This document shows, piece by piece, positions 1,487 through 20,000 of a stretch of DNA of 20,000 bases. The stretch comes from Psammoneis japonica. Lineage: Eukaryota. Numbering within the stretch: position 1 is the first letter of the stretch; each line of letters starts with the position of its first letter. The DNA is taken from assembly GCA_008632985.1 (NCBI GenBank), contig QPGO01000033.1, positions 618,175 through 638,174 of the forward strand. Reading direction: 5' to 3'. The notes beneath the pieces are model-generated. The model was not told where the DNA came from, did not search any database, and saw nothing but the letters and a program-made list of their open reading frames with translations. A program made the translations under genes and the position numbers.

Positions 1487-1921
1487 GTTCTGTCAATGAC
1501 ACCAAAAAATTGCCTTGTTTTCACCTGTGCCCACCAGTTTTCCAGTCAGCAGCTCCCTGCCTGCATTTTGGCACATTTTCTGCATGTGCAATGCTCTGCC
1601 CATTTCACAGCAGCGCACCCTCTCCCCAAAATGCATTTGACAAGAGGGTGTGCTGTTGTGTTGTTTGTCAGCAGCAGATCCTGAACCAATTTCATGGTGC
1701 TCACCTTTCGTCGCATGTTGCGAGACATCAGTTTGGAGTGAACTTTCCAATCGACAGATTCGCATGCTGGGTCAGACCATCTGCACTTCTCCTGCACATG
1801 TTGGATCAGAGCTGGGCTGGAAGCTTTGCAACGGAGAACTGATTTAAATTTCAAGCACACCTGAGCCGAAAAATGTCCGGAGAGACAGAAAAGGAACAGC
1901 AGAACCGCGTGCTTCTCCACC

Positions 1922-2673
1922 GTGACATCCAGGCAATGGCAGAATTTGTTCACACGATCATTGCCGGAGACAACCCAAATGATCCCACATCTGGTCAGCC
2001 TTGTTTCTGATTTTTACGTTGCAAAAGTCTCCAAAGTTTGATCAACGATCAAGCCCAAGACCTCCACAGTGCCCATTTTGTCACTGACATTGTCATGCGT
2101 CACGTTCAGTGCAAACCCAAGGACATGGACTGTCGGTTCCTGAAGATTTTCTGTCATGTCAATGCCCAAAAGGAATGGTGCCTCTTTGTCAACAGCTTTC
2201 CGGATGCATGCAATGCTGACGATCCTGGTTCCCAGGTGGATGAGATCAAGGGGTTCCTTGGTGACCCAACCGGCAACATCAAGAACACGGTGATGATGCA
2301 AGGCGATTCCCTTGCACGCCGGGAGGCTCATGAAGAAAAAATCAATTCCATGTTGAATCATGAATTTGAGAACCGTTGTCCCAAGGAGCAAAATGGCATC
2401 TGGCCTGGGCACAGCAAGCAGCTCACAATGCTTTGTTGCAGAATGCACGATCAGAGGGCCGACTGCTTGGAAGATGATGACAAACAACATTGCAAATCTA
2501 AAACCAAACGCAAAATTAAGAGGATCCGCAAAGATGGCACCTGTTTGTGCGATGGCAAGCAACCCGCCCACCTCCCACCTTTTGCCTTTCTGCCTGCATC
2601 TGTCATCTCAATGTCCCTTCTCACACTCCATGGTTGCACACGCCTCACCAGAGCCTTCCTTGACCGTCCCTGA
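1922..2673 (+). pseudogene. Decayed protein-coding-like segment of unknown family (second copy ~18655-19406)
   Basis: The frame reads like a natural globular protein (DIQAMAEFVHTIIAGDNPNDP...KSLQSLINDQAQDLHSAHFVTDIVMRHVQCKPKDMDCRFLKIFCHVNAQKEW...KTKRKIKRIRKDG). It has no Tyr, excess His/Cys and an in-frame TGA at 2008-2010. No family recognised. Confidence 0.35.
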
Positions 2674-3260
2674 CAAGAAGGCCAAGCCTGCATCTCACTC
2701 GAAACCAGCACCTCCTTCATTGTCTGGTGATGTGCCATTGTCTGGGGAGGGAGGAAGCGTTCCAGGCGCAGGTGGGAATCCGTGTGACATTGGGCCCGCA
2801 GAATTCTGCGTGCGAGCTCCGCAGTAAAATCACACGGCAATTAAAATGTGAAGTGCATCGTTTTTTACTCAGCCAGCTACATTCTTCAACCATTGAAGAG
2901 CGCAACTGGTGCATTGTTGTTTCCACAAATTCGTCACACAAAACATCTGGGGCTTCGCAAAACAGTGCTTCTGGACAATTTTTTAAAATGTCACATGTGG
3001 AAATGCATGTGCGAAACATGCGACGGATGACAAAAATCATTTGTGTCACACGTCAGTGCTGCGAGCTCCCACCTGGGGCTGAAACGCGTCGGAGGCGCGC
3101 CGGACTCTCACCGCTGACCTTCCGTCACTCTCAGAAATGATGGAAAACCAAAAACCTGCTCCCACCTCCAAAGGCCCTTTGTCCAAACTGCGTTCCTCTC
3201 CTCCGTCTGTTTCGGGCAAATCTTCCTGCAGTTGCGTCTCCTCCCAGCAACCCTGATGAC

Positions 3261-3725
3261 ATGTCGTGGCTGGACAAGTCCACACTCTGCAATCACTTTG
3301 ACCTGTCCAAGTGTCGGCCCGCCACCACCGAGGAAGTTGCTTCTCATTTGTCACACCTGCACATCATTGACAAAGCCACCAACACTGATCAGTTTCTTCG
3401 TCATTCCGCTGACTTTCACCTGGCAGACAACTTGCGGGAAAACTGGCACACGTTCTCAAACAATGCGCCTTCATGTGATTCCGCCACCGCATCTTGTGTC
3501 CGAACCAAGCACCCTCCTGACCTTGATCACTTCTCCAAGGAACTCTCCATTGCCAGACAAGCCAACTCTCTGTGCAAAGGGCACTTTGGGTGCATTCGTG
3601 TGTGCATTCCTGCCCTCCTTGGAGAGAGTGAGCTGCGGGATGAATTTGCAGCGGGTGCGTTTGATGATGCAAAACTGGTCATGGACAGGGGAGACGTTTC
3701 GACATTGGACACATTCCAGGTCTAG
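3261..3725 (+). pseudogene. Possible decayed coding segment, unknown family
   Basis: 154-aa Tyr-free ORF with protein-like composition (ALLGESELRDEFAAGAFDDAKLVMDRGD). No recognisable motif. Confidence 0.25.
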
Positions 3726-4638
3726 GTGGGACCTCACACTGCTGAACTGTGACATCGACAGTTTTTTGAATCGCGTCGTGTGTCGCGCACGTACATTTCT
3801 GCGTGATGTTGGCAAAATTTTGCATGATTTTATGGTGCAATCATCAGGCGATCCATTCAACAACTTTTAATGTTTTTTCCTTCTACGCCATTCTCGAGTG
3901 TCTTAAGAATGGCGTGGGGCAGGCGCGCTGTCCAAAACTTTGAGTGCGAACAGAGACATGTGTGCTGCAAACTTGGCCGTTCATTTTGTGTCGAAGACAA
4001 ATGTGTCCATTGACCAAAGTAAGAAATGCAGAGCTCGCACGCAGAATTCCATGGGGCGAATGTCACAAAAAGTCCCACCCAGGACTGGAGCCCGTCATTG
4101 AGACAGAAGTCAAGTGTCAGCTTGCCAACTTGTGGAATGGATGAGACAGGCACTTGTGGACCGTTGGGAGAAACATCACCAAGGGGAGGCACTTGTGGAC
4201 CATTGATGGACAAAAAGGGCATTGTTTGCGATGCATTGATGCTGGCAAAGTGGTTCCAGCGTGACATCTTGCAAGACCACCCTGAAAGACTGTGGTTCTG
4301 TGAGGAAATGGAGTTCTTCCTGTTGTCTCCAAGGACAGTCAATGAATGGACACTGGATTTAATTGCAGAGGAGGAGGATGAGCAGGAGAACTTTCACAGC
4401 AGGAGAGAGGAAATGCGTTGGGTGGAGAGATGACGGCGCGCCAAAGTTAACGAATTTGTGAGATTTGCCGGAGCGGAGACGAGGGCTTTCATTTGCATGA
4501 CTGATTGTTTGGACATTGGGCAATGCAGCAGGTTTAGAGCCACAAGGTTAGAGGGGGATGACAAAGTGGGTTGGAAAAAACGATTTGGCGCCAAAAAGGA
4601 TGGATGTGCTGCAGCCCCACCAGCAAACCAGAATGTCA

Positions 4639-4938
4639 TTAAAGCATGTGTGGGGTTTGTTCATTGTGGCAAAAATGACTTTTACAGGCACACGTTTTCA
4701 CAATGTTTTGAGCAAAATGCTTGTGCATGCTGTCAACAGCATGGAAGTGGATTTTGACATTGCAGCAACAGAGAGGTTTGAACTGGAATTTGCATGGATT
4801 CGAAATTTTCAAAAGATGACAAGGAATGGCAAAATTGTTGAATCATGCACACATCAAAAGATTTGGCTAATTCTCGATTGTGCTGCAATTGAGAAAAGAG
4901 AATCATTGATGAAAAGCATCAGATTTTCAGTGTTAAAG
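4639..4938. repeat. ~295-bp AT-rich dispersed repeat, copy 1
   Basis: ttaaagcatgtgtggggtttgttcattgtggc...agattttcagtgttaaag matches 5307-5606. Confidence 0.9.
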
Positions 4939-5064
4939 AGAGGTTTGAAAATTTCCCAATGGTGAAATGAGCTGGGGAACCAAGGCATGGAGCCACCCAC
5001 AATTGGCAACAGTGGCACAGGCTCAACATGAAAAAGAGCACGGTCACTCAGGCGATCAAGAACA

Positions 5065-6166
5065 TTGCAATGGCTGGCAAGTGCACCCATGTTTGCTGAA
5101 GTCGTGTTGACAGACAACAAAGCCAAGGGGATGCGTGGTCAGAAGAAACCGGCAGCGAGAGGCAAAGGAGGGAAGAAGAGCAAGAAGAGGAAGAAGAGCG
5201 ATCAGACAGCAGATGAAGAGCCGTTCCTGGTGACTTGGGAGGAGGAGACAGTGATGACGATTGTGGAGGGCAAGCGCAAGAACAAGGGAGCGCATGCTTG
5301 GTTCTGTTGAAGCATGTGTGGGGTTTGTTCATTGTGGCAAAAATGACTTTTACAGGTGCACGTTTTCACAATGATGTTTTGAGCAAAATGCTTGTGCATG
5401 CTGTTGACAGCATGGAAGTGGATTTTGACATTGCAGCGACAGAGAGGTTTGAGCTGGAATTTGCATGGATTCGAAATTTCCAAAAGATGACAAGAATGGC
5501 AAAATTGACAAAACACACACATTGAAAGATTTGGTTGATTCTCAATTGTGCTGCAATTGAGAAAAGAGAATCATTGATGAAAAGCATCAGATTTTAAGTG
5601 TTGAAGACGATTGTGGAGGACAAGCACAAGAACAAGGAAGTGCATGCTTGGTTCTGCAAAAACGTCCTGAAACTCACGAAGAGCACCACGGGTGAGACGA
5701 AGGCAGCCGGTCTGGCCACAGCAGGTGACGAGGCTCTGGGTCTGTTGATGCTGGAAAACTGCTGGAAGAGTTGGGAGCACAAGGCCCATCATGACAAGAC
5801 TGTTGGAGCTGGGGGGGCTCAGACGAAGAGGATGAGGAAGAGTCGGAACCAACACCCAAGCACATGGACCCGTCGAGGCAACGAGACTCATGGAAGGATG
5901 CAGGGACATTGCGATTCAATGAACTGCTTGCAGAAGTGAAGAAAGACAGGTTGAGTGAGGAGGGCATGCAGTTCGACACATGGTGCAGCGAAGGCAAGAA
6001 AAGGAAGAGTGATGAAAGAGGCAAGGGATCAAAAAGAAAGAAAAAGCCAGTGGGGAAGGAGGCAAGAACACAGGCAACGACAGAGCTTTCAAGTGACAAC
6101 AAGGAGAAGGAGGAAGAGGCAACGGACAAGAACAGAGGAGACAAGGACAGCAAGGAAGAGGATTGA
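5065..6166 (+). pseudogene. Interrupted, frameshifted gene for a charged protein; probably a transposon-associated hypothetical protein
   Basis: ORF pieces 5065-5310, 5598-5939 and 5864-6166 join into ...HAWFCKNVLK...TAGDEALGLLMLENCWKSW...SWKDAGTLRFNELLAEVKKDR..., followed by a Lys/Glu-rich tail. The DEA-x-LL-x-LEN-x-W and W-x3-G-x2-RFNEL-x3-V-x2-DR pattern resembles repeat-associated hypothetical proteins of diatoms (from recall, not searched). Confidence 0.45.
5307..5606. repeat. ~295-bp AT-rich dispersed repeat, copy 2, inserted in a decayed ORF
   Basis: ttgaagcatgtgtggggtttg...agattttaagtgttgaag, flanked by a 55-bp duplication (5252-5306 / 5602-5656). Confidence 0.9.
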
Positions 6167-7023
6167 GAAAGCGATGAGGGAAGCAAGACGAACGCAGATG
6201 CAGATGATGAGCGAGCTGCGGCACGAAAATGCAGTGGAGGCTTTTGTTGGTGTGAGAATGGAAAGCGGGTGAGCAGCACATCAGCGTTCAATGCAAACAG
6301 TTGTGGGGTTCTACGAAGCATTTTGATGGTCATTGTTGCATGATCCAAACTTTCATTTGACAACCAGTGTTCACAATGGAAGGTTCCTCAAACCCATGAA
6401 ATGCAATGATCAGCATTGACTTGTCATCAGACCAAACGTTTTGAATTTCGCATTGAAAAGGTAAAAAGGGACGGCATTCTGACAGTCAAGGGTTGGATCC
6501 CATGGGACAAGGTGGGTTCCCATGGTGAAAAATTGCACACTGTGACATGTGACAAAAAGCCACAGTCCACACAACTGTCAAGGATTGAAGCCTTGACACT
6601 CGTGCCTGTGACGGCAGCAAAAATCACCTGTGAGAAGGGTGGCCAGGATTGCTGCAATTTGCACTCTGACGTTGTTGCGCTGGCTGACAAACAGTGCAAA
6701 TGAGTCACATGTTTCTGGGTCACATGCTGCCTTGCAGCCAAAAGAAGCAATCTTTGCCTTTAGAGCCACCATGATGCACTGGTCTGCCAAATCAAACTCC
6801 GCATCACCATGGACAGTCGGGGAGAAATGTTGTCAAAACTGCGCGATGATGTGTTTGAGCTCTTGAGAGCTCACCCAGCTTGAGACATCATGGCTCCAAG
6901 TTGCCATGTTTGTCGTGAACTCTTCCTGATGCTGTGTCTGTGACTTGGCTTCGTCGTTCAATTGCCGTGGCCATCGCACTTCAGAGGCGACATTCTTGAC
7001 AAGAAAAAGTGTCTCTGGGACAC

Positions 7024-7242
7024 TGACAGGATTTGATCAAGATTGACCAACTCGACCAAATCCGACCCAACGACTTGAAAAATGCGACACCCAGGATTCG
7101 AGCCCAGGCCATCAAGTGACTGGTTGCCAACCAAACCATTCACAGTGCAGCTCAAGTCGAGAGGCTTTTTGCACACAGCAGCTGGATGTGTTTCAGCCAG
7201 AGAGTGACATGCCGGCATTCAACTCTTCTTTGAATTCTGTCA
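7024..7242 (-). repeat. TRIM LTR (3')
   Basis: tgacaggatttgatc...gaattctgtca. Confidence 0.88.
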
Positions 7243-7679
7243 CTCCCCATGTGTCACGAATCTGTCTGATGTGGCTGTCCCTGAATCGCCCCCACAAGGT
7301 TTCTAAGTCACCCAGGATCATTCGGACGGGCAGGTTGAATCGCTCCTCTCACAAAGCTCCGCTGCTGTCAAGGGACCCACCCACATCTTCCGTGCCGGAG
7401 TTGAAGACAGGGCTCAAACATGGACTCTCGCCGCAGTGCATGGCACTCCCTGCAGTGCGCCGATGTCGACTGCATTGCTGACAGATTCCAAGCTCCCTGG
7501 GCAATTTTTCGCGCCCCCCTCATTCAAAGCATGCTGAGCGGCTGCCCTCTGCACACCGGCAACACCCCATTCTGCCCCGACGGCTTCACAGGGGCTTCCC
7601 GACAATGCTGTCCCCCCGAGGCAGGCATGCCCCGTTTTTGAGACAGAGAGATGCGCGCGTCACTCTGAGAATCACGCCA

Positions 7680-7897
7680 TGACAGGATTTGATCAAGATT
7701 GACCAACTCAACCAAATCCGACCCAACGACTTGAAAAATGCGATGCCCAGGATTCGAGCCCAGGCCATCAAGCAGCCGGTTGCCAACTGGACCATTCGCC
7801 GCACAGCTCAAGCTGAGAGGCTTTTGCACACAGCAACTGGATGTGTTTCAGCCAGAGAGTGACATGCCAGCATTCAACTCTTCTTCGAATTCTGTCG
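7680..7897 (-). repeat. TRIM LTR (shared middle)
   Basis: tgacaggatttgatc...gaattctgtcg (terminal CA changed to CG). Confidence 0.88.
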
Positions 7898-8320
7898 CTC
7901 CCCATGTGTCACGAATCTGTCTGATGTGGCTGTCCCTGAATCGCCCCCACAAGGTTTCCATGTCACCCAGGATCATTCGGACGGGCAGGTTGAATCGCTC
8001 CTCTCACAAAGCTCCGCTGCTGTCAAGGGACCCACCCACATCTTCGATGCCGGAGTTGAAGACAGGGCTCAAACATGGACTCTCGCCGCAGTGCATGGCA
8101 CTCCCCACAGCGTGCCGATGTCGACTGCATCGCTGACAGATTCCAAACTCCATGGGCAATTTTTTCATGCCCCCCTCATTCAAAGCATGCTGAGCGGCTG
8201 CCCTCTGCACACTGGCAACACCCCATTCTGCCCCGACGGCTTCACAGGGGCTTCCCGACAATGCTGTCCCCCCGAGGCAGGCATGCCCCGTTTTTGAGAC
8301 AGAGAGACGCACGCGTCACT

Positions 8321-8335
8321 GTGAGAATCGCGCCA
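8321..8335 (-). promoter_or_regulatory. Putative primer-binding site of the TRIM (second copy 7665-7679)
   Basis: Minus strand TGGCGCGATTCTCAC directly after the LTR; TGG is complementary to the tRNA CCA end. The tRNA identity was not determined. Confidence 0.65.
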
Positions 8336-8554
8336 TGACAGGATTTGATCAAGATTGACCAACTCGACCAAATCCGACCCAACGACTTGAAAAATGCGAT
8401 GCCCAGGATTCGAGCCCAGGTCATCAAGCAGCCGGTTGCCAGCTGGGCCATTCGCCGCGTGGCTCAAGTCGAGAGGCTTTTTGCACACAGCAGCTGGATG
8501 TGTTTCAGCCAGAGAGTGACATGCCGGCATCCAACTCTTCTTCGAATTCTGTCA
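8336..8554 (-). repeat. TRIM LTR (5')
   Basis: tgacaggatttgatc...gaattctgtca. Confidence 0.88.
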
Positions 8555-9497
8555 GACACCTCGCGACAACGGAGACCCTGCAGAACAAAAGAGCAGCACA
8601 GAAAGAGAAATCGCGCGTGAGCCAAACGGTCACAAGCACGCAAAGCCCCGACAAAACACACAGCATGAATGGCAACGCACAAGGTTGGTCGTGATGCAAC
8701 AGAAGTGACGTTGTCAATGCGAGCCTTCAGCAAGAATTTTCACCATGATCCACCCACATGAACCTGGGTGTTCTCGACCTTGTCTCGCAGAAGATGACGC
8801 AATGTGCCAAACTCCGTTGAGAGCATCCAGGTTCCGACCTCAGAGATGATCGCATTTTTTGGCTTGGCAAAACACCATTGTTCGTGCTGTTTTGCGTGTC
8901 ATTTTGAGCCATGAGCCAGAAAACACTCCCAAAAACTGTTCTGCAGGGTGAAGTGCACTGAGTCTGCACAGATTTGGGCTGTTCCAGGCTGCGCAGAAAG
9001 TGAGCGGGCCAAAAACTCTGGTGCACCCACTCAAACACATTCGACAACTGACTGACAACAGATCGGTTGACTGGCTTCCCAAAGCGCCACTTGTGTTGTG
9101 CCCTTCCCCAGCTGCTCTCCGGCTGGTGCCATGGAGTGCAGTCGTTCAATTTAGATTGTGCCTGCAACATCATTTGCAACAAACGTGACTGCCACTTTTC
9201 ACACATTGTCTGCCAAACAGGTGTTGGCTCCAGCTCATGTGTCTCAGTGCAACCCACCACGTGGCTTTCCTCATCCCCCAACCCATTGCCCCCCTCCTCC
9301 ACTTTCCTGTCATGCTCTGCCACAATCTTCCTGCAAAAATCCTCCCTCTTGCGTTTCCTGGGTGCGCTCCCTTCCGCGTCTCCGTTCTTGGAGTTCCCTG
9401 CCATGAAAAGCTTCAGGCGTCTCACGCACTTTCTCCTCTTTGCCCCGCGCTCTTCATCGGGCAGGTTCTTGTTGTTCTGCAGCTCTGTGGTGACCAG

Positions 9498-9962
9498 CAA
9501 AATGGCCAAGGGCACAAAATCAAAAAGGACAAAAAATGTCTTTTGAGGGCGCCAAATCACAAAGGGCACAAACCAGGCAGGGGCACAAAATTGCTGTCAC
9601 AAAATGGCTGAGGGCGCAAAATGGTGGCTGAGGGCACAAAGCTGCCAAGGGCAAAAAATCAGAAAGGGTCCAAAATGGCAAAAGGCACAAAACCACAATG
9701 GCCAAAAATTGCTGAAGGCACAAAATCATGAGGGGCACCAAATGCGGCTGAGGGCCCAAAACCAAAAAAGGCACAAAATGGCAAAGGGCACAAAGTCACA
9801 AAGGGCGCAAAATGGCCAAGGGCACAAAACCACGAGACAGGGCAAAGTGCTCAAGGGCACAAAAAAAGGAAAGGGCACAAAGCAGCCAAGGGCACAAAAA
9901 GGTCAAGGGCACAAATCAAGAATTGCGCAACATGGCTGAGGGCACAAAATCTCAAAGGTGCC
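9498..9962. repeat. Degenerate minisatellite built on the motif AGGGCACAAAA (units ~20 bp)
   Basis: About 20 recurrences of ggcacaaa/ggcgcaaa interleaved with aaatggccaa/aaatggctga. Confidence 0.85.
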
Positions 9963-10308
9963 ATGCCAAATGCGAAAATGCAAAATGCGAAAATGCAAAA
10001 AAAATGCGAAATGCGAAAATGCAAAAATGCGAAAATGCTGAAACAAAATGCGGAAACGCGGAAATGCGAAAATGCGGAAACGCGGAAATGTGAAAATGCG
10101 GAAATGCAAAAATGCGGAAATGCGAAAATGCGGAAATGCGGAAGTGCGGAAATGCGGAAATGCGAAAATGCCCAAACGCGGAAATGCGGAAATGCGAAAA
10201 TGCAGAAATGTGGAAATGTGGAAATGCAAAAATGCAAAGAAATGCAGAAATGCAGGAATGCAGAAAAACACGAAAACACAGAAATGTGGAAATGCAAAAA
10301 TGCAAAAA
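9963..10308. repeat. 8-bp satellite (GAAATGCG / AAAATGCG)n
   Basis: About 40 degenerate units, e.g. gaaatgcg gaaatgcg aaaatgcg, with variants gaaacgcg, gaaatgtg, aaaatgca, gaaaacac. Confidence 0.93.
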
Positions 10309-10336
10309 GGGTCAGGCTTGGGTTTGGGGTTGGGGC
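10309..10336 (+). repeat. Degenerate telomere-like hexamer tract
   Basis: ggg tcaggc ttgggt ttgggg ttgggg. Each hexamer has CA or TG where TTAGGG has TA; two also differ at the last base. Confidence 0.45.
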
Positions 10337-10349
10337 TTGTTTCTGAATC

Positions 10350-10908
10350 TTTGGCACATGACATCTTGTCTGTCAACATGACAATGTTTTTTGTGTGTTG
10401 GTTTCACGACAAGGTGTTGTGTCCAGCAAATGTCCATCAAAGTGCTGTGGCGGTGTTTCAAGCTCAAGACAAAATTGGTTGGAGACAGATTTTCAATGGG
10501 CGCTTCTCATCTTTGTGGAACAAAGCTCAGCCATCATGCTTGCTGTCAACTGGATTGTGCCGCTCCTTGTTGAACATGGAAAAGCACCCAGATTGGGCCA
10601 CTGCGATTGGCCGTTTTGTGTGGCCCCAATGGCGGGAACACTCCATGATGACACTGCACATGGGCACAATTTGGGCACAAGAAAGTCCTCACAGCACCGT
10701 GACGCCAAGGCAGAAGCATGAGCCATCCATTCCAAGGCAGACAATTGTTCAGCTTGCAATCGATCCAAGTTGCTCAGTTCAGTGGAGGAGCACCTCACTT
10801 GTTTGACCCACAGACTGTGCAGCTGGTTGGCCATGGCTCGACCAATGTTCAAGTCAAGCATCCGCGAAGCCTGGCGTCTGGCAGTGAGGGGCACTGGCGC
10901 CATTGCAA
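10350..10908 (+). mobile_element. 5'-truncated, decayed non-LTR retrotransposon (C-terminal region); continues at 16403-16471
   Basis: AQDKIGWRQIFNGRFSSLW...W...IGRFVWPQW / DTAHG...SVEEHL...SWL...PMFKSSIREAWRLAVRGTGAIA resembles the Q-x2-IGW-x2-F-x-GR-x-S-x2-W C-terminal region of diatom LINE-like proteins (from recall). The frame resumes in phase after the Copia. Confidence 0.6.
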
Positions 10909-11084
10909 TGAGCAATTCACGCCGCAGTCTCTGGGAATTTGACAAGATGCGACAGAAAATGTTGGCGCGGCAATCAACAGGTTCCAGAAAATTGCAAGGT
11001 TGTTCTGTGCCACCCTCTGTGTCAGCGACAGTGATGGTCTTCGCCAAATGCCATGTTCAGCGACAGTGTGGCTGCACTCACTCA
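10909..11084 (-). repeat. Copia 3' LTR
   Basis: TGAG...CTCA inverted termini; aligns without gaps to 16227-16402. Confidence 0.92.
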
Positions 11085-11094
11085 GTCCCCTCGA
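11085..11094 (-). promoter_or_regulatory. Polypurine tract of the Copia
   Basis: Minus strand TCGAGGGGAC directly before the LTR start TGAG. Confidence 0.65.
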
Positions 11095-11303
11095 ATGGAC
11101 ACCAGCTTTGGCAGGATCAATTCGACCCTGTGCATCCACGTTGCCGGCCCTTTCCAGGCCAGTTCAAAAAAAACATGTCTCGGGATGGGCAAAACCATCT
11201 CCATTTTGGAAATGGAAAATCCCGGTTCGTCTGCAAGACGAAGCAATCAGTGGCGCCACAGCTGCATTGGGCTCGGGTGTTTTGCCCGCCACTGGAATCA
11301 CAA

Positions 11304-11621
11304 TCACCACAAAATGTGATGAGTTGACTCCCGGAGCCTCGGTCCGGGCATCAACTTGGTGAGAACGTCAGCGAGATTCTTCTCGCCATCCTCCCAAGCA
11401 ATGCGCACAATGCCAGCAGCCTGCGCCTCATGCATCCGGTGACAAGCAATGGCACTGTGCTTCTTTTTGAGTGTCGACTCGGGCCGCATTGAGTTCTCAA
11501 ACACGGCCTCATTGTCACAGAAGACGTTGATGGAGCCATCGATGGGAGCACCCATCATGCGAAGCTTGTGTCGAAAGGCCTCGATCTGCTCCACGGCAAT
11601 TTTCATCGCAACAAATTCCAC
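11304..11621 (-). pseudogene. Copia RNase H, C-terminal part
   Basis: EFVAMKIAVEQIEAFRHKLRMMGAPIDG..VFCDNEAV..N...PESTLKKKHSAIACHR..EA.AAG.......GEKNLADVLTK. Confidence 0.93.
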
Positions 11622-12981
11622 ATTCCTGAAAACGTGATTGATTGAAGGTCAGTTCCGTGTCATCGAACACCATCGCTGACCTGGCATGTGCCTTCAAACA
11701 GGCAAAGATGTGAAACACCTCATCCAGGTGCCCAACCCTTGGCACTGCCAAGCAAGAAGACAGAAGAGAGACTGGCGCTGCAATGTCAGTGCGCCCCAGT
11801 TCCACCACCCAACACAAAACGCCAATGAGTCCCTGGAAACAAGTCGCCCTTCGGGCATCCAGCTCAGGTGCAGCGTCAAGTTCAGGGTGATGCCCCAAAC
11901 TCAATGGCGTTGCGACTCTCTTCTTGAGTCCCCGGCCTGCACGGCCGAGTTCAAACTCAATGTTGGCAGCGGCCCACTGGACACACAAGTCAGGTGCAAG
12001 GGCCCAACGTGTTTTGCCGTCCGAGTCAGATGGTTGGAACTTCTTCACTTCGGCACCCAGGTGCTCTTCCGGTTCCTTGACGCTTCCCTCTTTTGGCACA
12101 TGTCTCAAAGCCATGTAATCCATGAACTTCTGGGGTTCATGCGAGACAACCAGCAGGTCATCTGCATGTGCAAGCATGCATTCCCAGCACTTGAAGCCAT
12201 CCAGCTTGGCATTCTTGTGCATCCACACATCGGGATCACCCTTGCCACAGGTGAATCCCACGAGCCTTGGCGTTGCTGCCACATGTTCCCTAAAAGCAGC
12301 GCCGGAACTCTTCAGTCCGCACAGGGCCCTGACAATTTCAACGGGTCGACCGACACTCTGCTTGCCAAAGTCCAGGCCAGCAATTGTGCAACAGCACTCC
12401 TTCATTGGTGCATTCAGACGAGCATTCTGAATGTTGGCACACATGACTTCCAAGTCATTCAGAGCTGCTGTCGTGTGGCCTCCAGCCACGTGTTGCACTT
12501 TCCTGTTCAAGTCCAACTTGATGTCAAACACCAAGTGGCACTTAATTTCCTTGTGTCCCATCTGGTCATCATCGACAAATTCGAAGGCTGGCATTGCATT
12601 GCGCATCTCCTTCTCAATTGCATTTCCCCGCAGGTCAAGCCCAGACTGTTCGTCCAGCATCAAGGCCTGCTCCACGGATTTTGGCAATTCGACACCGAAT
12701 TTGTGAGTGCGCTTCCAGCACCTGGTCTTGACTTTCATGACCATCCTGGCATGACGACGCAACATGTCTCGAACCCACCAGTTGAACGCTGGCTCACCAG
12801 CCATCTCATTTGCAACAGCATGCTCCGTGACTTGGACAGGGAATGATTCTTTTGCCTCCGACAAAGGGAGCCAACTAGAGCTTCCATCTTTCCACTCAAA
12901 CTGTGTGTCCCAGTCAATTGTCGTTCGGCGGGGCCTGCGCGTGCCACTCTTTGTGACAAAGAAACCATCATCTTTGTGCAC
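11622..12981 (-). pseudogene. Copia reverse transcriptase (RVT_2 type) and upstream linker
   Basis: WKDGSSSWLPL..KES.PVQV.EHAVAN..EPAFNWWV, KFGVELPKSVEQAL, CHLVFDIKLD, VAGGH, RALCGLKSSGAAFR, DPDVW, HADDLL (normally YVDD), GRTDI. Confidence 0.95.
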
Positions 12982-13790
12982 TGCGCATGCGTCACTTTGG
13001 TGACCTGCAATCTCTTTGACAATTTGGCAAGATCGTCCCTCCCCACAAACCTGGGAGCAGATGTTCTCAGCAAATTAAATTGGCTGTGAACGTGTCGGCA
13101 GATCTGTCTGGGAACTCTACCTCGCAAAGCCGTGAATCCAGGACAGGCTTTTTGTGCCGCTTCCCTGTCTGATTTCCATCCGCACCGCGCTGCATTGGCA
13201 TCTTCCTTGCCAAATGGGTCTTCGGGTGGTTCTGGGAACTTGTCATTCCCTTCCTGACCATCCCCTGGCCTGAGTTTCAGACTGGCATCGAGATGCTCAA
13301 TCTTTTGCCAAATCGCATTGGTCTTCAAGTCATCCTCAGGCAGAGCCCACACATCCTTCCAAATGATGGGTGTGCCTGATTCAGGTGGGATCACAAATGC
13401 CATGTCATCTGCACAGTTTTCTGTGACACCTGACCAGCGCCCGATGCACTTCCTTTCAAAGGGAAATTTTGCCTGAGGCATCATAAAGTGCACCGGCTGG
13501 CACCAGTCAAAGAGGGCATGAGCTGAGACGTCTGGTGTTGAACCCGTGATGTCCTCTTTGGGGACTTTCCCATCCATTTCCGGATGCTCAGAGGCCGCGA
13601 GCCTCCTGACAGCCATGGCCCACTTGGCACAGCAGGACCAGCAGCGTTTTGGCGCATTCGTGCGCCTTGTTGCAATCCGCACTTTCTTCTTCAGCTCACG
13701 AATGGAGGCTTCGGCCAAGTTCTGCCGCAGACTGCAAGGAACAGCAACCCCTTGTTTGATCCGGCACCCCAATGATTCGTAATGGGATCC
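12982..13790 (-). pseudogene. Copia integrase C-terminal remnant
   Basis: PCSLRQNLAEASIRELKK (cf. EPYSPWQNxAExxIRELK), TGSTPDVSAHALFDWCQPVHF, IGRWSGV; frameshifted. Confidence 0.85.
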
Positions 13791-13849
13791 GGACCTTGGA
13801 GTCTGGGAAGGCAATTGAATGAGTGCTGGAGCTGCCAAACTGCTTTGGC

Positions 13850-14140
13850 ACATCATGCACCGTCAAGCCGTTAGCATGGAGCTGATTGGGACATGTCAGT
13901 GAGTGTTCATCCTGTCCCCAATGTGCATGGCCTCACTCAAGATGAGGAGGTGTGGCTGACCAGAACTCGGGTCAACCCAGACAGCAGCAACCATCTGCAT
14001 CGGGATGTTGTTGATCGGGTCGCATTCACTGGAATGTGGATGTGCAGTGACAGCACGAGAGGGGTCAGAGAAGGGAACACAGCTGGATCCTGCAATGCAT
14101 GTGTCGGCATGCATGTCCAGCTTGTTGAAAAGGGAGTTGT
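13850..14140 (-). pseudogene. Copia aspartic protease region
   Basis: LDMHADTCIAGSSC (cf. the CoDi-type ELDSHADTCxxG), followed by DPSSGQPHLLILSEAMHIGDRM. Confidence 0.85.
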
Positions 14141-14300
14141 GGCCTGCATCAGTGTCGACTGAAGCTGTGCATCTCAAGGATTTAGCGAAAGGCACAGACA
14201 CATTTCCATTGGTGCAGACAGAAGCAGCATCACAAGAATTGATTTTAGACTCCATTTTAACTTCTACAAGGTTGTTGTCCTTGCTCATTGGCGCAACCTT

Positions 14301-15590
14301 TCATTCCTTTTTCTTGGCTTCCGCAATGCTTGCAGCCGCAGGCTTGTGCGCTCTGCGCCCAAACTGATTCCCAGCATCGGCACCCCCTTTTTCCTTTGAG
14401 GTTTTCTCCTTTTCAACGTCCTTGGGATCAGCAACCGTCACCTTGGAATGTTTCCTCAGAGGTTCTTCGGTTGCCTTTGTTTTCAGAGCAGCAGCTCGGC
14501 GCTTCTTCTCATGCCTCTTCTTCTCCCGAAGCTCATTGACTTTGGCCTTCTCCTCTTGGTTGAGGTCATCCCATTCTTCCTTGGGACAATGGCCTGCCCT
14601 GATCCGGGGCTTGTCTTTCACCTTGCCTTTTCCCTGGCCTTGGTTCCTGTTCCTGGCGTTGTCCCGTTCCAATGCCGCAATCTGGCGGTGATCCGTTGCC
14701 CGATTCTTTGAGTTCTCAACCAGTGTCTTCATGTGCTGTTGACACAACTCAAAGCTGGAGAGTTTTGCCTTGTCGCTGTCTGCGACGCTCTTTCTGGTCT
14801 CCAACCTTGGGTCCGTGATTCCCTTCAGGAAATCTGAGACCTTCTTGGTCTCTGCCACCAGCTCATGCTGGTTGAATGCATGACGACCGCGCCCAGCGCA
14901 TTTTGCGGCAGTGATCTGAGCATGCATGCGGCTCTTGAGTGGTTTGATCAAGGCCCACCCTGGCCCATCAATGATCAGCTTTTTCAAGAGATCACAAACC
15001 TGCTTGCTGTCAGTGTCATGCAAATTCCCTTGATGGATCGTGGCAGCGTCAAGGTCCTTGTCGACGTTCGAATGAGTGGCATTGCGCACCTCATTGTTGA
15101 CTTCCGAAGTCTCGCGAACAATGCACAAAAGTGGAACGCCCGCAACTGCATTACGGCGGTGCTGGAGCTTGGTCCCAAACAGCTCATCCCAATTGTAAAA
15201 ATCGTGCATCTGACTCAGAGGTGCAGTGCTTGGGGAGTTGTCGTCTGATTTGTCCTTCTGGATGTTCGACAATTCACTCAGACACTCTGTTCAGCAAGTG
15301 ATTGCAGCGTCGTTGAAAGCTTGGGCCTGCCTTGGCTGTCCACGTGTCGTTTGACAATCCAGAAAAGCTCAAAATGCCTTGAACTTCCTGATCAAAAGGT
15401 GTGGGAACTGCACAGCTGGGTTGTCAACAGTGTCCTTGATGAATCCCTTGACCATGTCTCCGACCTCAGACAGTGGGATTTGGTGGCAGGAATCAGCATC
15501 GGTGATCCCTTGCACCACAACATGGGCCCTGGTGGCATCGTCAAACCCAGTCCGGGTGAGGGCTGCATCAAAAGCGACAGCGGCAGCCAT
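14301..15590 (-). pseudogene. Copia gag, frameshifted
   Basis: MAAAVAFDAALTRTGF...QGI...FPHLLIRKFKAF, GVPLLCIVR, DSKQVCDLLKKLIIDGPGW, ETKKVSDFLKGITDPRL, CPKEEWDDLNQEEK. Lies between the 5' LTR and the protease. Confidence 0.8.
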
Positions 15591-15658
15591 TGTGCAGTCA
15601 AAACAACCCCGTCAGAGGCACGACATGCGTGTGTGCGTGTTTCGTTTCGATTTTCTCA

Positions 15659-16155
15659 CGCCAACGGCAAAAGTTGGCTCTGCCAATGACATTGAAACCG
15701 GCAAATTAATGGAGTGTCAATTTCCTCAACAACTCCACACTCAACATGTCCCAGTGCACATCAGCATTGCGCACACATTGAATTGTTTCCAATGATTAAT
15801 TTCCGTTGTGCACTGCTCAGGTCCAACGAGTGAACTGTGTTCACATTCACAACTGTGTCACATTTGCAGCGAACAATTTCGATTGAAGTGAGGTCATGGT
15901 GTGTCTTTCCATTGTGCATTTGGCGCGCGATCGCCAATGGCAAAAGTTGGCTCAACCAATGACATTGAGACCGGCAAATCAACGGAGTGTCAATTTCCTC
16001 AACAATTCCATGCTCAACACATCCCAGTGCACATCTGCATTGCGCGCACATTAAATCATTTCCAACGATTGATTTCCGTTGCACATTGCTCAGGTCCAAC
16101 AAGCGAGTTGTGCTCACATTCACAACTGTGTCACATTTGCAGTGAACAATTTCGA
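15659..16155. repeat. Tandem duplication (224 bp x2, period 273) in the Copia 5' leader
   Basis: 15659-15882 matches 15932-16155 (cgccaa(c/t)ggcaaaagttggctc...gaacaatttcga). Confidence 0.92.
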
Positions 16156-16212
16156 AAGAATGGCCGCCATGCCATTGCCCATTCCAGGCTGCAGAACAAA
16201 GAGAGACGTCAT

Positions 16213-16223
16213 TGGCTCTGACA
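16213..16223 (-). promoter_or_regulatory. Putative tRNA-iMet-like primer-binding site
   Basis: Minus strand TGTCAGAGCCA, 3 nt after the 5' LTR, matches the canonical (TGG)TATCAGAGCCA except TA>TG. The TGG itself is not conserved. Confidence 0.55.
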
Positions 16224-16226
16224 AAG

Positions 16227-16402
16227 TGAGCAATTCACGCCACAGTCTCCAGGAATTTGACAAGATGTGATGGAAAATGTTGGCACAGCAATCAACAGGT
16301 TCTAGAAAATTGTGAGGTCATTCCATGCCACCCTCTGTGTCAGCAACAGTGATGGTCTTTGCCAAACACCACACTCAGCAACAGCATGACTGCACTCACT
16401 GA
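16227..16402 (-). repeat. Copia 5' LTR
   Basis: Aligns without gaps to 10909-11084; the terminal ctca is ctga here. Confidence 0.92.
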
Positions 16403-16471
16403 GCAAAATGTTTTGGCACAACATCGTCTCAGGGTGATGCCAACCAAGGACGTGCAAAACCAACAAGTTGA
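16403..16471 (+). mobile_element. Remainder of the interrupted non-LTR element ORF
   Basis: Removing 10909-16402 and one copy of GCAA gives att gca aaa tgt ttt ggc... = IAKCFGTTSSQGDANQGRAKPTS*, with the stop at 16469-16471. Confidence 0.55.
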
Positions 16472-16727
16472 CTGCAATGTAAAAAGTTGACTCCATCATG
16501 ATGCTCCATTTAAGAGGGCGGTCCAGAGACAGCCCGCTGCACTTTTTGCACAGAAACTGCACGAGAGCCAAGCACGTGCATTCCTGCACAGACGCAGCAC
16601 AAAAACAGAAAGCATGGCATGCCCATCAGCAACTCACGACAACACCACGTGATGACCATGCATCAAAATGGAGTCGTCCACATCTCTTTCTGCAGCTCCT
16701 CTTTCACTTGCTCGATTGCTCCAAAAG

Positions 16728-19700
16728 GGCCAGGGAAAGCTCGTGTGCTTCTGTCATGATGGATCAATGTAAACCAAAGTTGTTCTTTTTGTTCTGCAAC
16801 ATCAGAGTGCAGTGCAACAGATTGTCAAGGCGCACCCGCACGTTGGCTGTGCTGTCAGCCAAATCAACACCATTTGCCGTTCACTCACTCGACAAATTAC
16901 AAAGCTGATGATTCTTGTTGGCTGAAACTCTTGAGCTGCTTTTGAGACTTGACACAATGACCCACTTGTCCCGCCCTTCACCCTCCACATTTCATCAGAG
17001 GCTGCAACACAGTGTTGTTCACTTTCCTTTGTAAATTTTGGAACATTGAATTGCACAAAAGTGTGTCATCATTGTCCAACTTCAACAAAAATTTTAAGAG
17101 TCAAGTTGAATTTCTCATTTCCTTTTTGTGTGTGCAATTGTTGCCTTTTTGTTTTGACCCAAATTTGCCAAAGACTTTCAATGCACATTTTGTCATCAAA
17201 AAATGAGTTTTGTTTTGATGAATTTGTTGCACATTCATGGAAACGTCAACTTTGACAGTGCTTTTCAATGGCTCCACCGCAGTCTTGCGTGGCCCTGACA
17301 AAGAGAGAAGGGGCAGGAGGACTTGCCGTGCCTGCCAATGTCAAGACTGCAAAGGACGTGGAGGCAAACATTTGTGTGAGCACCAGATGCATCCACAGTT
17401 GGGAAATCAACACTGCACTGCTGTCGTGCCATTCAGCTAGACCAGCAATCACCAGCAAGAGCGACCACAAACTTGCCTTCTGTTGGCACAAAAAGCAAAC
17501 ATGCCCTCATGACAAGTGCACCCATTTCCATCTCTTGCTGCTGTTTTGACTTTCGACCGGCATCCCAAGAGTGACACCGCGGCCTGACGGCATCACGCAG
17601 CCCCTCGGCATTTCCACAGCCCCCCCCCCCCCCTTTCCCAAGGTCCATTGACGGCATTGTTGCATTGCAGCCCCTGCTTGCAGCTGCAATTTGTTGTGTG
17701 CTCTTCAGCAAAGTCGATTTTGTGTTCCCAACATCTGTCGATGGCGTCACCATGGCCCAGCTCCTTGCCAACCGTGTGAGAATCAAGCAATGCCAACAGC
17801 AGCAAAAACACAGAAGGAGCTTTCACCCATTTTTGGACTTTCTCACCTCTGTTTTCTTGGACACACAATGTCAGAGTAAAATGTGGAATTGACCTGCATT
17901 GGCGTTGTTTGCAAGAGAAGGTTTGACGGCAATGATCAAGCATCGGCTGCTTCTGCGCCATCATGGTGGTTTTTTGTGATGATTTTCTGCGCTGCGTTGT
18001 CTCACTTGAATGTGGAAAACTGTTTTGCATTCATTGTTGCTTTGTTTCTACAAAGTTTGTGTCTTTTTCATGTTTGTTGGAGGCACGCTAAAGAATCAGA
18101 TTTTTTGCATCAAAACGAAGCATGACAACACACACTTGGACTTGCAGCGCTGAACTCTTTCTCCCTTCTTTTCCCTTTTCCTCTCTTCTCCTCTCTCTCT
18201 CCTCCCCTCCTCTTTTGTGTTCTGTCAACGACACCAAAAAATTACCTTGTTTTCACCTGCACCCACCAGTTTTCCAGTCAGCAGCTCCCTGCCTGCATTT
18301 TGGCACATTTTCTGCATGTGCAATGCTCTGCCCATTTCACAGCAGCGCACCCTCTCCCCAAAATGCATTTGACAAGAGGGTGTGCTGTTGTGTTGTTTGT
18401 CAGCAGCAGATCCTGAACCAATTTCATGGTGCTCACCCTTTCGTCGCATGTTGCGAGACATCAGTTTGGAGCGAACTTTCCAATCGACAGATTCGCACGC
18501 TGGGTCAGACCATCTGCACTTCTCCTGCACATGTTGGATCAGAGCTGGGCTGGAAGCTTTGCAACGGAGAACTGACTTAAATTTCAAGTTCACCGAAGCC
18601 GAAAAATGTCCGGAGAGACAGAAAAGGAACAGCAGAACCGCGTGCTTCTCCACCGTGACATCCAGGCAATGGCAGAATTTGTTCACACGATCATTGCCGG
18701 AGACAACCCAAATGATCCCGCATCTGGTCAGCCTTGTTTCTGATTTTTGCGTTGCAAAAGTCTCCAAAGTTTGATCAACGATCAAGCCCAAGACCTCCAC
18801 AGTGCCCATTTTGTCGCTGACATCGTCATGCGTCACGTTCAGTGCAAACCCAAGGACATGGACTGTCGGTTCCTGAAGATTTTCTGTCATGTCAATGCCC
18901 AAAAGGAATGGCGCCTCTTTGTCAACAGCTTTCCGGATGCGTGCAATGCTGACGATCCTGGTTCCCAGGTGGATGAGATCAAGGGGTTCCTTGGTGACCC
19001 AACCGGCAACATCAAGAACACAGTGATGATGCAAGGCGATTCCCTTGCACGCCGGGAGGCTCATGAAGAAAAAATCAATTCCATGTTGAATCATGAATTT
19101 GAGAACCGTTGTCCCAAGGAGCAAAATGGCATCTGGCCTGGGCACAGCAAGCAGCTCACAATGCTTTGTTGCAGAATGCGCGATCAGAGGGCCGACTGCT
19201 TGGAAGATGATGACAAACAACATTGCAAATCTAAAACCAAACGCAAAATTGAGAGGATCCGCAAAGATGGCACCTGTTTGTGCGATGTCAAGCAACCTGC
19301 CCACCTCCCACCTTTTGCCTTTCTGCCTGCATCTGTCATCTCAATGTCCCTTCTCACACTCCACGGTTGCACACGCCTCACAAGAGCCTTCCTTGACCGT
19401 CCCTGACAAGAAGGCCAAGCCTGCATCTCGCTCGGAACCAGCACCTCCTTCATTGTCTGGTGATGTGCCATTGTCTGGGGAGGAAGCGTTCCAGGCGCAG
19501 GTGGGAATCCGTGTGACATTGGGCCCGCAGAATTCTGCGTGCGAGCTCCGCAGTAAAATCACACGGCAACTAAAATGTGAAGTGCATCGTTTTTTACTCA
19601 GCCAGCTACACTCTTCAACCATTGAAGAGCGCAACTGGCGCATTGTTGTTTCCACAAATTCGTCACACAAAACATCTGGGGCTTCGCAAAACAGTGCTTC

Positions 19701-20000
19701 TGGACAATTTTTTAAAATGTCACACGTGGAAATGCACGTGCGAAACATGCGACGGATGACAAAAATCATTTGTGTCACACGTCAGTGCTGCGAGCTCCCA
19801 CCTGGGGCTGAAACGCGTCGGAGGCGCGCCGGACTCTCACCGCTGACCTTCCGTCACTCTCAGAAATGATGGAAAACCAAAAACCTGCTCCCACCTCCAA
19901 AGGCCCTTTGTCCAAACTGCGCTCCTCTCCTCCGTCTGTTTCGGCAAATCTTCCTGCAGTTGCGTCTCCTCCCAGCAACCCTGATGACATGTCGTGCTGG
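16728..20000. repeat. Copy 2 of the large direct repeat (runs off the window)
   Basis: Near-identical to 1-3273. Confidence 0.97.

Follow-up and report, generated by a model that had tools for sequence, protein, structure and literature searches.

The question raised by this locus is how a Copia element could lose conserved tyrosines from its reverse transcriptase (RT) and RNase H, including the tyrosine of the catalytic motif, and in which direction the responsible mutations ran. An earlier note, made from the letters of a 20,000-nucleotide stretch of DNA (the window), had proposed that these residues were systematically recoded to Cys, His or Arg. We find that the same loss of TA dinucleotides pervades the window, and we think it highly probable that the tyrosine loss is the coding scar of a TpA-specific hypermutation acting at the DNA level on an integrated Copia element and on the surrounding repeat-rich 20 kb.

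Anatomy of a degenerate Copia element

An LTR pair and pol homology define a degenerate Ty1/Copia-type LTR retrotransposon of about 5.5 kb on the minus strand (10909-16403). The 5′ LTR, in element orientation, lies at 16227-16403 and matches the 3′ LTR at 10909-11085 over 177 nt with 84.7% identity, both on the minus strand. The edge of the 3′ LTR is fixed by contigs of sequencing run X1 that reach 10909; beyond it, these contigs run on into the reverse complement of what adjoins the 5′ LTR. A PBS-like stretch, TGTCAGAGCC, adjoins the 5′ LTR and may resemble an initiator-tRNA PBS; no clear target-site duplication or PPT was seen at the element. Between the 5′ LTR and gag, the leader contains a 273-bp tandem duplication (15659-16155) whose copies are 88% identical and differ mostly by CG/TA/CA/TG changes. 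The ORF that follows (14301-15272, minus strand) is called gag-like from its position only, and its sole Pfam match, to DUF5726, is below threshold (E = 0.004, 17.9 bits; cut-off 25). A Pfam scan of the protease-region ORF (13896-14288, minus strand) returned no match, and the N-terminal part of the relatives aligns at 14120-13765 (HSPs of protein P0121).

A C-terminal integrase remnant with its linker (12735-13856, minus strand) matches by BLASTP a protein that carries rve and RVT_2 (P0109, E = 4e-29). At approximately 13764 the element has lost about 267 aa that the polyprotein of the relatives possesses, the integrase core among them: in tblastn the alignments break off at window position 13765 and resume at 13763, with a median of 267 aa of the relatives left unaligned in between. 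Homology to relatives places RT and RNase H at 11304-12981 on the minus strand, in two frames (11515-12981 and 11304-11621). Integrase therefore sits upstream of RT, which is the Copia order, and full-length relatives are colinear from 14120 down to 11307.

Searches with the pol region yielded 284 matches at E ≤ 1e-3 (best 2e-152) and 540 longer ones at E ≤ 1e-20 (best 2e-171), and nearly all of the pol matches listed carry PF07727 (RVT_2). The best are environmental proteins at 57% identity; among named proteins, the nearest matches are to RVT_2 proteins from Fragilaria crotonensis, Cyclotella cryptica and Nitzschia inconspicua, which share 40-49% identity. These diatom relatives, together with the position of integrase upstream of RT, suggest a possible likeness of the element to the diatom CoDi-type Ty1/Copia group. 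The window's own frame does not reach Pfam RVT_2 (no family is returned even at E ≤ 10), whereas the same HMM scores 49-59 bits on all four relatives tested (cut-off 31.6), and we read the missing score as probable decay rather than as non-membership.

Loss of tyrosine from conserved positions

The 488-aa ORF (11515-12981, minus strand) contains one tyrosine in total, and a direct count bears out the earlier note on this point. The 105-aa RNase H frame that overlaps it (11304-11621, minus strand) contains none. Tyrosine makes up 4.05% of residues on average in 120 relatives (range 2.7-5.4%). At 12157-12168 the plus strand reads gtcatctgcatg, the reverse complement of which, CAT GCA GAT GAC, encodes HADD on the minus strand. 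The relatives' consensus at this site is YVDD and the first column is Y in 59 of 59, in line with the proposed change from YVDD to HADD, and an intact catalytic YxDD is absent from the RT of the window. The other positions listed as recoded tyrosines fare equally well, with 96-100% Tyr among relatives at every listed column; the codons now found there are TGC at 12319-12321, CGT at 12418-12420, CAT at 12820-12822, TGC at 12718-12720, CAC at 12061-12063, TGT at 11698-11700, CAC at 11568-11570 and TGT at 11442-11444.

Two alignments extend this picture. A MAFFT alignment with 60 relatives has 18 consensus-Tyr columns (at least 60% Tyr), at which the window keeps no tyrosine and carries eight Cys, six His and one each of Arg, Trp, Phe and Leu. 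A tblastn codon analysis with 70 full-length relatives (the first 70 by identifier among 86 proteins of at least 1250 aa) covers protease, integrase, RT and RNase H and yields 29 consensus-Tyr codons, again with none retained: 16 have become TGY (Cys), 10 CAY (His), 2 Phe and 1 CGT (Arg). Conserved codons for other residues are retained in 433 of 577 cases against 0 of 29 for tyrosine (Fisher p = 2.7e-17), and the recoding of this ORF is confirmed as lying far beyond chance. In a check set beforehand, the relatives were found not to carry His or Cys at these columns themselves (combined share 0-19%, mostly 0-3%).

Direction, dinucleotide specificity and strands

The direction of change rests on the known ancestral state at the coding sites of Copia pol, and elsewhere in the window on composition. 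At the coding sites, the conserved tyrosines of a retrotransposon amount to assumption-free proof: 26 of 29 Tyr codons have moved to TGY or CAY, in support of the earlier claim that TA became TG or CA. Decay of CpG cannot yield Tyr-to-Cys or Tyr-to-His changes because TAY has no CpG ancestor, and the dismissal of CpG decay as the cause holds.

It had also been claimed that both strands were hit. This too stands, since the ratio of Cys to His outcomes (16:10, p = 0.33) reveals no strand bias. Strand-coordinated bursts were considered and are ruled out by a runs test (15 runs versus 13.3 expected).

The changes are specific to TpA. At codon position 2, A has become G in 16 of 29 cases after T, versus 3 of 55 after A, 3 of 86 after G and 1 of 22 after C; at codon position 1, T has become C in 10 of 29 cases before A, versus 1 of 21 before T and 2 of 27 before G. 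Thus, TA has changed far more often than other A/T sites, although some A>G and T>C changes also occur outside TpA (3.5-7.4% of sites). Other TA-bearing codons are concordant. Changes of GTA to GCA, CTA to CCA and ATA to ATG are all seen: Val-to-Ala replacements are GCA in three of four cases, Leu-to-Pro replacements are CCA in three of three, and Ile-to-Met occurs three times. Even across codon boundaries, where a TA would read tA>tG, both Lys-to-Glu changes and three of four Thr-to-Ala changes are preceded by a codon ending in T.

TA depletion across the window

The recoding extends past the 488-aa ORF to the whole window. There are only 77 TA dinucleotides in the 20 kb (obs/exp 0.062), with CA at 1.57, TG at 1.61 and CG at 0.58, and therefore the effect is not particular to the ORF. 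In 1-kb bins, rho for TA is 0-0.125 in 20 of 20 and rho for CA+TG is 1.45-1.80. The TA-depleted, CA/TG-enriched domain spans positions 1-20000, with no boundary inside the window, and noncoding flanks and tandem repeats are as TA-poor as the rest. Among 80 related Copia loci from metagenomes, rho for TA ranges from 0.46 to 1.02 (median 0.68), compared with 0.06 for the element in the window. TAA and TAG stops have largely vanished, so that the six frames are filled with long spurious ORFs: the stops counted are 935 TGA, 85 TAA and 33 TAG, and 68 ORFs reach at least 100 aa. This window-wide extent had escaped the earlier note, as had an existing report on the alga Bigelowiella natans that is discussed below.

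Decay of CpG accompanies the loss of TA, as is evident from the rho of 0.58 for CG and from 65 of 173 mismatches between repeat copies. The familiar 5-methylcytosine decay of CpG also ends in TG and CA and is also active in the window, and the excess of CA and TG is partly fed by it. Doubles of CA and TG between repeat copies may likewise descend from either CG or TA.

No host gene was recognised in the remainder of the window. A Pfam scan of 48 of the 63 stop-to-stop frames of at least 110 aa (the other 15 comprise 5 from an 8-bp tandem array and 10 from the second copy of a duplicate) gave no family at E ≤ 0.001, and other Pfam scans of window frames gave only sub-threshold noise. Rfam produced no match on the window at gathering thresholds. 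For the ORF at 18747-19406 (plus strand), a word-indexed search found no homologue; an exhaustive search produced a single weak match, P0241 (E = 7e-5, 26% identity), a protein without any Pfam family.

Public sequencing data contain the same TA-poor sequence. Of the words sampled, 47% occur in Logan contigs of run X1; 781 contigs fall on the stretch, with word depths of about 30-190 per contig. Differences between these contigs and the window are transitions at 447 of the 514 places listed; among 40 differences listed, there are 4 at which other X1 copies still have TA where the window has CA. The window may itself have been assembled from the X1 sample, and the support from this run is thus not independent. 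Runs X2 and X3 have no contigs on the stretch, and there are no RNA runs among the sequencing runs listed as containing the sequence.

Surviving TA sites and flank preference

Among the 77 TA dinucleotides that survive, only 3 fall in ATA- or TAT-containing classes and 22 are TTAA; the corresponding shares among 18,575 TA in relatives are 51.7% and 4.9% (chi-square p = 9e-29). A rule by which RTA/TAY is lost first predicts an excess of Cys among pyrimidine-preceded tyrosines, and Tyr codons after a pyrimidine have indeed become Cys in 8 of 9 cases, whereas after a purine there are 8 Cys to 9 His (one-sided p = 0.045). The process thus has an extended preference in which RTA/TAY goes first and TTAA last, on the basis of 77 sites and one marginal test. 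Some surviving TA might have been newly created rather than being resistant.

Repeat copies and the order of events

The two LTRs of a retrotransposon are identical at insertion, by the mechanism of retrotransposition. In the window they differ at 27 of 177 positions, 24 of which lie within CG, TA, CA or TG dinucleotides, including 8 adjacent CA/TG doubles. With both strands hit without bias and the LTRs diverged at YpR dinucleotides, the process must have acted on integrated DNA and not on RNA.

A second chronometer is provided by a direct repeat with a spacing of about 16.73 kb, whose copies (1-3273 and 16728-20000, both plus strand) are 98.1% identical over 3279 columns. The copies share TA at 15 sites and differ in its presence at 4; CG is shared at 90 sites and restricted to one copy at 30 (120 in total). 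There are only 2 CA/TG doubles, and by subtraction about 13 differences are spread over the other approximately 3000 positions. The TA and CG differences within so similar a pair count for recent activity. The order of events is insertion of the Copia element, heavy loss of TA and CpG, the 16.7-kb duplication and then slow, continuing decay, with TA loss falling mostly between insertion and duplication.

Weighing the explanations

In the mechanism that we favour, T:A would be converted to C:G only inside the self-complementary TpA, with TG or CA as the outcome according to the strand hit. The integrated Copia element and the entire 20 kb would have been acted on until about 94% of the expected TA was gone. 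Since tyrosine is encoded only by TAY, the conserved tyrosines, including the Y of YVDD, would have been converted mostly to Cys and His (26 of 29). The chemistry may be deamination of adenine to inosine, read as G, by an ADAT2/TadA-like enzyme. An unlikely variant of the same process relies on a different chemistry, in which the T of TpA is oxidised or modified to a base of the 5-hydroxymethyl- or 5-formyluracil type and mispairs with G to give T>C. Oxidised thymines do mispair with G, and hmU occurs at TpA in some protists. Since TpA is palindromic, a T>C change on one strand equals A>G on the other, and a damaged A and a damaged T are indistinguishable from sequence. A search of the dinoflagellate hmU literature found no paper on TA depletion. 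Arguing for adenine instead, the 2026 preprint by Mettrop et al. (bioRxiv 10.64898/2026.01.13.699255) puts forward as its candidate an ADAT2-like adenine deaminase, chosen from sequence and predicted fold only.

It is very improbable that the scar was left by ADAR-like A-to-I editing of the element's transcript and then fixed by reverse transcription and integration. The element does replicate via RNA, and a UA target suits the preference of ADARs for a 5′ U, a preference noted in the Discussion of the same preprint (10.64898/2026.01.13.699255). However, editing of the genomic RNA predicts Tyr-to-Cys changes alone, and 10 of the 26 recoded tyrosines are His, with no strand bias. The LTR pair differs at YpR dinucleotides, so these changes came after integration, and DNA across the 20 kb that belongs to no retroelement is equally depleted. 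Scarcely to be credited is an artefact of sequencing, base calling or assembly that miscalls TA, even though TA is extremely and evenly depleted across the 20 kb and the assembly may have been built from the sole run that contains the sequence. The contigs of that public run are TA-poor at the word depths given above, the repeat copies within the window differ at these very sites, the four TA-to-CA differences noted above distinguish the window from other X1 copies, the CpG decay looks natural and a flank-dependent residue of TA would be unexpected. Finally, we give almost no weight to a genome-wide avoidance of TA, driven by mutational bias or selection rather than by a process aimed at repeats. 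The window offers no segment with normal TA for contrast, but the loss of all Tyr codons and two of the three stop codons is incompatible with working genes. Invariant catalytic residues have been destroyed, which signifies decay and not adaptation, and the signature is local in B. natans, the only organism in which it has been studied (10.64898/2026.01.13.699255).

Relationship to known hypermutation systems

TpA hypermutation of integrated viral and other foreign sequences in B. natans is the subject of that preprint (Mettrop et al., 10.64898/2026.01.13.699255). In two viral regions, 230 of 231 de novo mutations were A>G or T>C, every one of these at TpA. Coding sequences low in TpA were enriched for reverse transcriptase; the authors read the signature as a regulated, RIP-like defence against foreign DNA. 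The window shares with B. natans the conversion of TpA to TpG or CpA by strand, and the coupling of TpA depletion to CpA+TpG enrichment in clustered 1-kb windows (our rounded rho for CpA+TpG is at least 1.52 in 17 of 20 bins, by a formula that may differ slightly from that of the preprint). Given this common signature, the window is a saturated instance of the kind of hypermutation just described in B. natans. The de novo events in B. natans fell in an NCLDV insert, where rho for TpA is still 0.45, and in a virophage insert; in contrast, rho in the window has fallen to 0.06 across no less than 20 kb, and the DNA affected is an LTR retrotransposon accompanied by tandem and segmental repeats. 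The words tyrosine, Copia, LTR, flanking, context and CpG do not occur in the text of the preprint. Searches of the literature on TpA or A-to-G hypermutation and on dinucleotides of diatom Copia elements found no other report of the signature, and neither Bigelowiella nor TpA occurs in PMC12344493.

Fungal RIP resembles this process in being a dinucleotide-specific transition hypermutation that strikes repeats and mobile DNA on both strands and kills their coding capacity. However, RIP changes C to T at CpA, makes TpA and depletes CpA and TpG. Membership in RIP is excluded because the flow of mutation in the window is exactly the opposite, from TA to CA or TG, with obs/exp of 0.06 for TA and about 1.6 for CA and TG. 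The retroelement hypermutation caused by APOBEC3 (C>U in minus-strand cDNA) and by ADAR (A>I in dsRNA) is also context-dependent and of a deaminase type, but it takes place before integration and is strand-asymmetric, whereas in the window the outcomes are split 16:10, divergence of the LTRs postdates insertion and the flanks are affected as well. Pre-integration editing of either type predicts strand-asymmetric changes common to both LTRs and was rejected, given the 27 differing LTR positions.

Implications

TpA-specific A:T>G:C hypermutation is a newly reported form of eukaryotic genome editing, described so far in one preprint and for one species (10.64898/2026.01.13.699255). The present locus widens its scope beyond viral inserts, to LTR retrotransposons and ordinary repeats that have been driven to saturation. 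The flank rule, by which TA preceded by a purine, or followed by a pyrimidine on the other strand, is lost first while TTAA persists, can be tested against candidate deaminases. Annotation is affected too: repeat annotation that relies on Pfam misses such regions, as their RVT_2 and rve matches are lost, and the regions present many false long ORFs because TGA is nearly the sole remaining stop.

We suspect that the process is a targeted defence. More tentatively, and with considerable doubt, we suggest that it could be an adenine- or thymine-directed counterpart of RIP: a general defence against repeats and mobile DNA, reaching beyond integrated viruses, that prefers RTA/TAY, accompanies the decay of methylated CpG within one silenced domain and exists perhaps outside B. 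natans, with the window as its end state. If true, protist genomes could be searched for such defence by its mark, DNA that is free of TA and inflated in ORFs.

Tyrosine loss in the Copia pol region

The RT/RNase H ORF of the degenerate Ty1/Copia element (minus strand, 11515-12981) encodes 488 aa with a single tyrosine, as an earlier note made from the sequence alone had stated, and the RNase H frame that overlaps it (minus strand, 11304-11621; 105 aa) has none. The mean tyrosine content is 4.05% in the 120 nearest relatives of similar length to the 488-aa ORF. A phmmer search with this ORF returned 284 proteins at E<=1e-3 (top match 2e-152, 51% identity), nearly all with PF07727 (RVT_2), and the named matches are diatom proteins from Fragilaria crotonensis, Cyclotella cryptica and Nitzschia inconspicua. 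The ORF has zero matches to Pfam, even at E<=10; all four relatives tested score 49-59 bits for RVT_2.

Two alignments trace the fate of the missing residues. When the ORF is aligned with 60 relatives by MAFFT, tyrosine is kept at none of the 18 columns in which at least 60% of the relatives have it, and the window instead carries eight Cys, six His and one each of Arg, Trp, Phe and Leu. For the second, full-length polyproteins from a search for longer relatives (of 86 proteins with at least 1250 aa, the 70 that come first by id) were compared with the window by tblastn, covering 961 window codons from 11309 to 14126. Tyrosine is left at 0 of 29 consensus-Tyr codons versus 433 of 577 remaining conserved residues retained (Fisher p=2.7e-17); the 29 codons now read TGY (16), CAY (10), TTY (2) and CGT (1). 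The proposed recoding to Cys or His is thus found at 26 of the 29. The alternative that relatives themselves use His or Cys at these columns finds little in the alignment, where 0-19% of them do so, and mostly 0-3%. The catalytic motif at 12157-12168 is CAT GCA GAT GAC (HADD), replacing the relatives' consensus YVDD as noted earlier, and every other listed tyrosine replacement was found again in its place.

TA-directed substitution on both strands

Ancestral bases were taken from conserved residues, and the clean contrast lies at codon position 2. There, A>G is seen in 16/29 cases after T (Tyr), compared with 3/55 after A (Asn, Lys), 3/86 after G (Asp, Glu) and 1/22 after C (His, Gln). The counterpart at codon position 1, T>C, is seen in 10/29 cases before A, compared with 1/21 before T and 2/27 before G. 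Both contrasts bear out the claim that TA was substituted more often than other A/T sites. The same trend as in Tyr codons appears in V>A changes (GCA in three of four), L>P changes (CCA in all three) and I>M changes (n=3), and cross-codon TA is represented by K>E (preceded by T in 2/2) and T>A (3/4). Classical CpG decay occurs alongside (R>H 5, R>Q 2, R>W 2, R>C 1, T>M 3).

If the genomic RNA had been edited prior to reverse transcription, only one of two outcomes would be expected. Cys corresponds to coding-strand A>G (n=16) and His to coding-strand T>C (n=10; p=0.33), and the two are randomly interspersed (15 runs vs 13.3 expected). RNA editing is therefore very unlikely, and both strands were hit, as previously suggested.

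TA depletion across the window

Depletion of TA is not peculiar to the RT/RNase H ORF and extends across the whole window, which has 77 TA (obs/exp, or rho, 0.062) together with rho values of 1.57 for CA, 1.61 for TG and 0.58 for CG. In each of twenty 1-kb bins, rho is 0 to 0.125 for TA and 1.45-1.80 for CA+TG. Because rho TA is 0.46-1.02 (median 0.68) in 80 related Copia loci on metagenome contigs vs 0.06 in the window's element, TA poverty is no trait of the Copia lineage concerned. The six-frame stop counts (TGA 935, TAA 85, TAG 33) explain the 68 ORFs of at least 100 aa on the two strands, and a Pfam family is absent from the 48 long frames scanned (of 63 in the window).

One frame outside the element (plus strand, 18744-19403, with a second copy at 2011-2670) has as its sole homologue a database protein, P0241, that is without a Pfam family (E 7e-5, 26% identity). 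By eye, four of six P0241 tyrosines in the BLASTP alignment lie opposite Cys or His in the 18744-19403 frame, a hint that some gene beyond the Copia element was recoded likewise.

Flanking bases of the surviving TA

The 77 surviving TA were sorted by symmetrised tetranucleotide class. They fall into GTAA/TTAC (23), TTAA (22), CTAA/TTAG (15), CTAC/GTAG (8), CTAG (5), ATAA/TTAT (3) and GTAC (1), with none in ATAT, ATAC/GTAT or ATAG/CTAT. Of 18,575 TA counted across the 80 related loci, 51.7% belong to the four ATA/TAT classes and 4.9% to TTAA (chi-square vs survivors p=9e-29). TTAA is the most persistent class, and the comparison indicates that purine-preceded TA was removed fastest. Such a TA would present, on the other strand, a target A with a following pyrimidine, and the strongest preceding base appears to be A. 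In an independent check at sites of known ancestry, Tyr codons after a pyrimidine became Cys in 8/9 cases and those after a purine gave 8 Cys and 9 His (one-sided p=0.045), which weakly agrees with this preference. We regard the flank rule as a lead and no measurement, as part of the surviving TA may be newly made.

Structure and history of the element

The coding region is flanked by a pair of 177-nt direct repeats (minus strand, 10909-11085 and 16227-16403; 84.7% identity), and along the minus strand come, in turn, 5' LTR, leader (with a 273-bp tandem duplication), gag-like ORF, protease region, integrase remnant (matching an rve+RVT_2 protein, E 4e-29), RT plus RNase H, and 3' LTR. Adjoining the 5' LTR is TGTCAGAGCC (16217-16226, minus strand), which we take to resemble a primer-binding site of the initiator-tRNA type, one of its TA being read as TG. 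Compared with the 70 relatives, the copy lacks a median of 267 aa near 13764 and pol is spread over several frames, so this copy is dead several times over.

Twenty-seven positions differ between the LTRs: 16 form eight adjacent CA/TG doubles, seven are CG<->TG/CA, one is TA<->CA and three are other changes. Post-insertion divergence was thus almost wholly at YpR dinucleotides, and either TA or CG may be the source of the doubles. A 3.27-kb direct repeat (1-3273 and 16728-20000; spacing about 16.73 kb, 98.1% identity) shares TA between its copies at 15 sites, has it in a single copy at four and contains only two CA/TG doubles; most TA loss is therefore older than this duplication. CG differs at 30/120 sites and TA at 4/19, and about 13 other differences, by subtraction, lie over the remaining ~3000 positions. 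Together, the LTR and duplicate comparisons give the order as Copia insertion, heavy TA and CpG loss, segmental duplication and slow ongoing decay.

In this 98% duplicate CpG is as mutable as surviving TpA, which, with a rho CG of 0.58 in the whole window compared with a related-locus median of 0.93, suggests that the domain is cytosine-methylated. The window apparently takes in ~1.2 units of a large duplication, tandem or segmental, with the element within unit 1. Tandem repeats at 7024-8554 (unit about 656 bp, 94% identity) and 4639-5607 (about 668 bp, 92%) differ among copies mostly by CG<->TG/CA, CA/TG doubles and TA<->TG. A microsatellite-like 8-bp array (9968-10308; consensus AAATGCGG, about 37 copies) and the degenerate 17/34-bp array adjoining it (9498-9915) are both TA-free.

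Comparison with a public sequencing run

One public run, X1, contains 47% of sampled words. At 80% identity or above, 781 of its contigs match 10400-15900 (170 at >=99%, 262 at 95-99%, 191 at 90-95% and 158 below 90%), a spread that indicates a multi-copy family. Transitions account for 447 of 514 listed places of difference; among 40 of these given row by row, 13 have TG/CA in the window and CG in the others, and four have CA where the others still have TA. The match to X1 represents consistency and no independent support, as the assembly itself may have been built from this run. Among the same 40, the window has G/C where others have A/T in an AA/TT context eight times, and the reverse twice; this small sample may point to a milder A>G activity where the 5' base is A.

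Contigs of X1 that reach 10909 run on into the reverse complement of sequence beside the other 177-nt repeat, which matches the LTR prediction. Four contigs match up to 10908 and then resemble the plus strand just past 16403 (junctions 10908/10909 and 16403/16404). The arrangement resembles an empty-site copy; Copia would then have inserted into an older repeat of which other copies are without it.

Relation to TpA hypermutation in Bigelowiella natans

A precedent is available from mutation accumulation in B. natans, in which the mutation rate of two integrated viral regions is about 1000-fold above that in the rest of the genome and 230 of 231 changes there are A>G or T>C, those all at TpA (bioRxiv 10.64898/2026.01.13.699255). 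The same preprint describes 124 clusters of 1-kb windows with a deficit of TpA and an excess of CpA+TpG, as well as 324 low-TpA CDS enriched in reverse transcriptase and DDE domains. Its authors propose a regulated RIP-like defence, with an ADAT2-like deaminase as their candidate from sequence and predicted fold. In its text, the words tyrosine, Copia, LTR, retrotransposon, trinucleotide, flanking, context and CpG are absent. Our literature search found the signature reported nowhere besides this preprint.

The earlier reading of TA-directed recoding of Copia Tyr codons is upheld in both its observation and its interpretation. We infer the targeting of the process and likewise its chemistry; because TpA is palindromic, sequence cannot separate adenine deamination from a thymine lesion. 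The window is of the same kind as the hypermutation just described in B. natans, and represents a saturated case of DNA hypermutation specific to TpA, in which an integrated Copia element and the repeat-rich DNA around it were hit.
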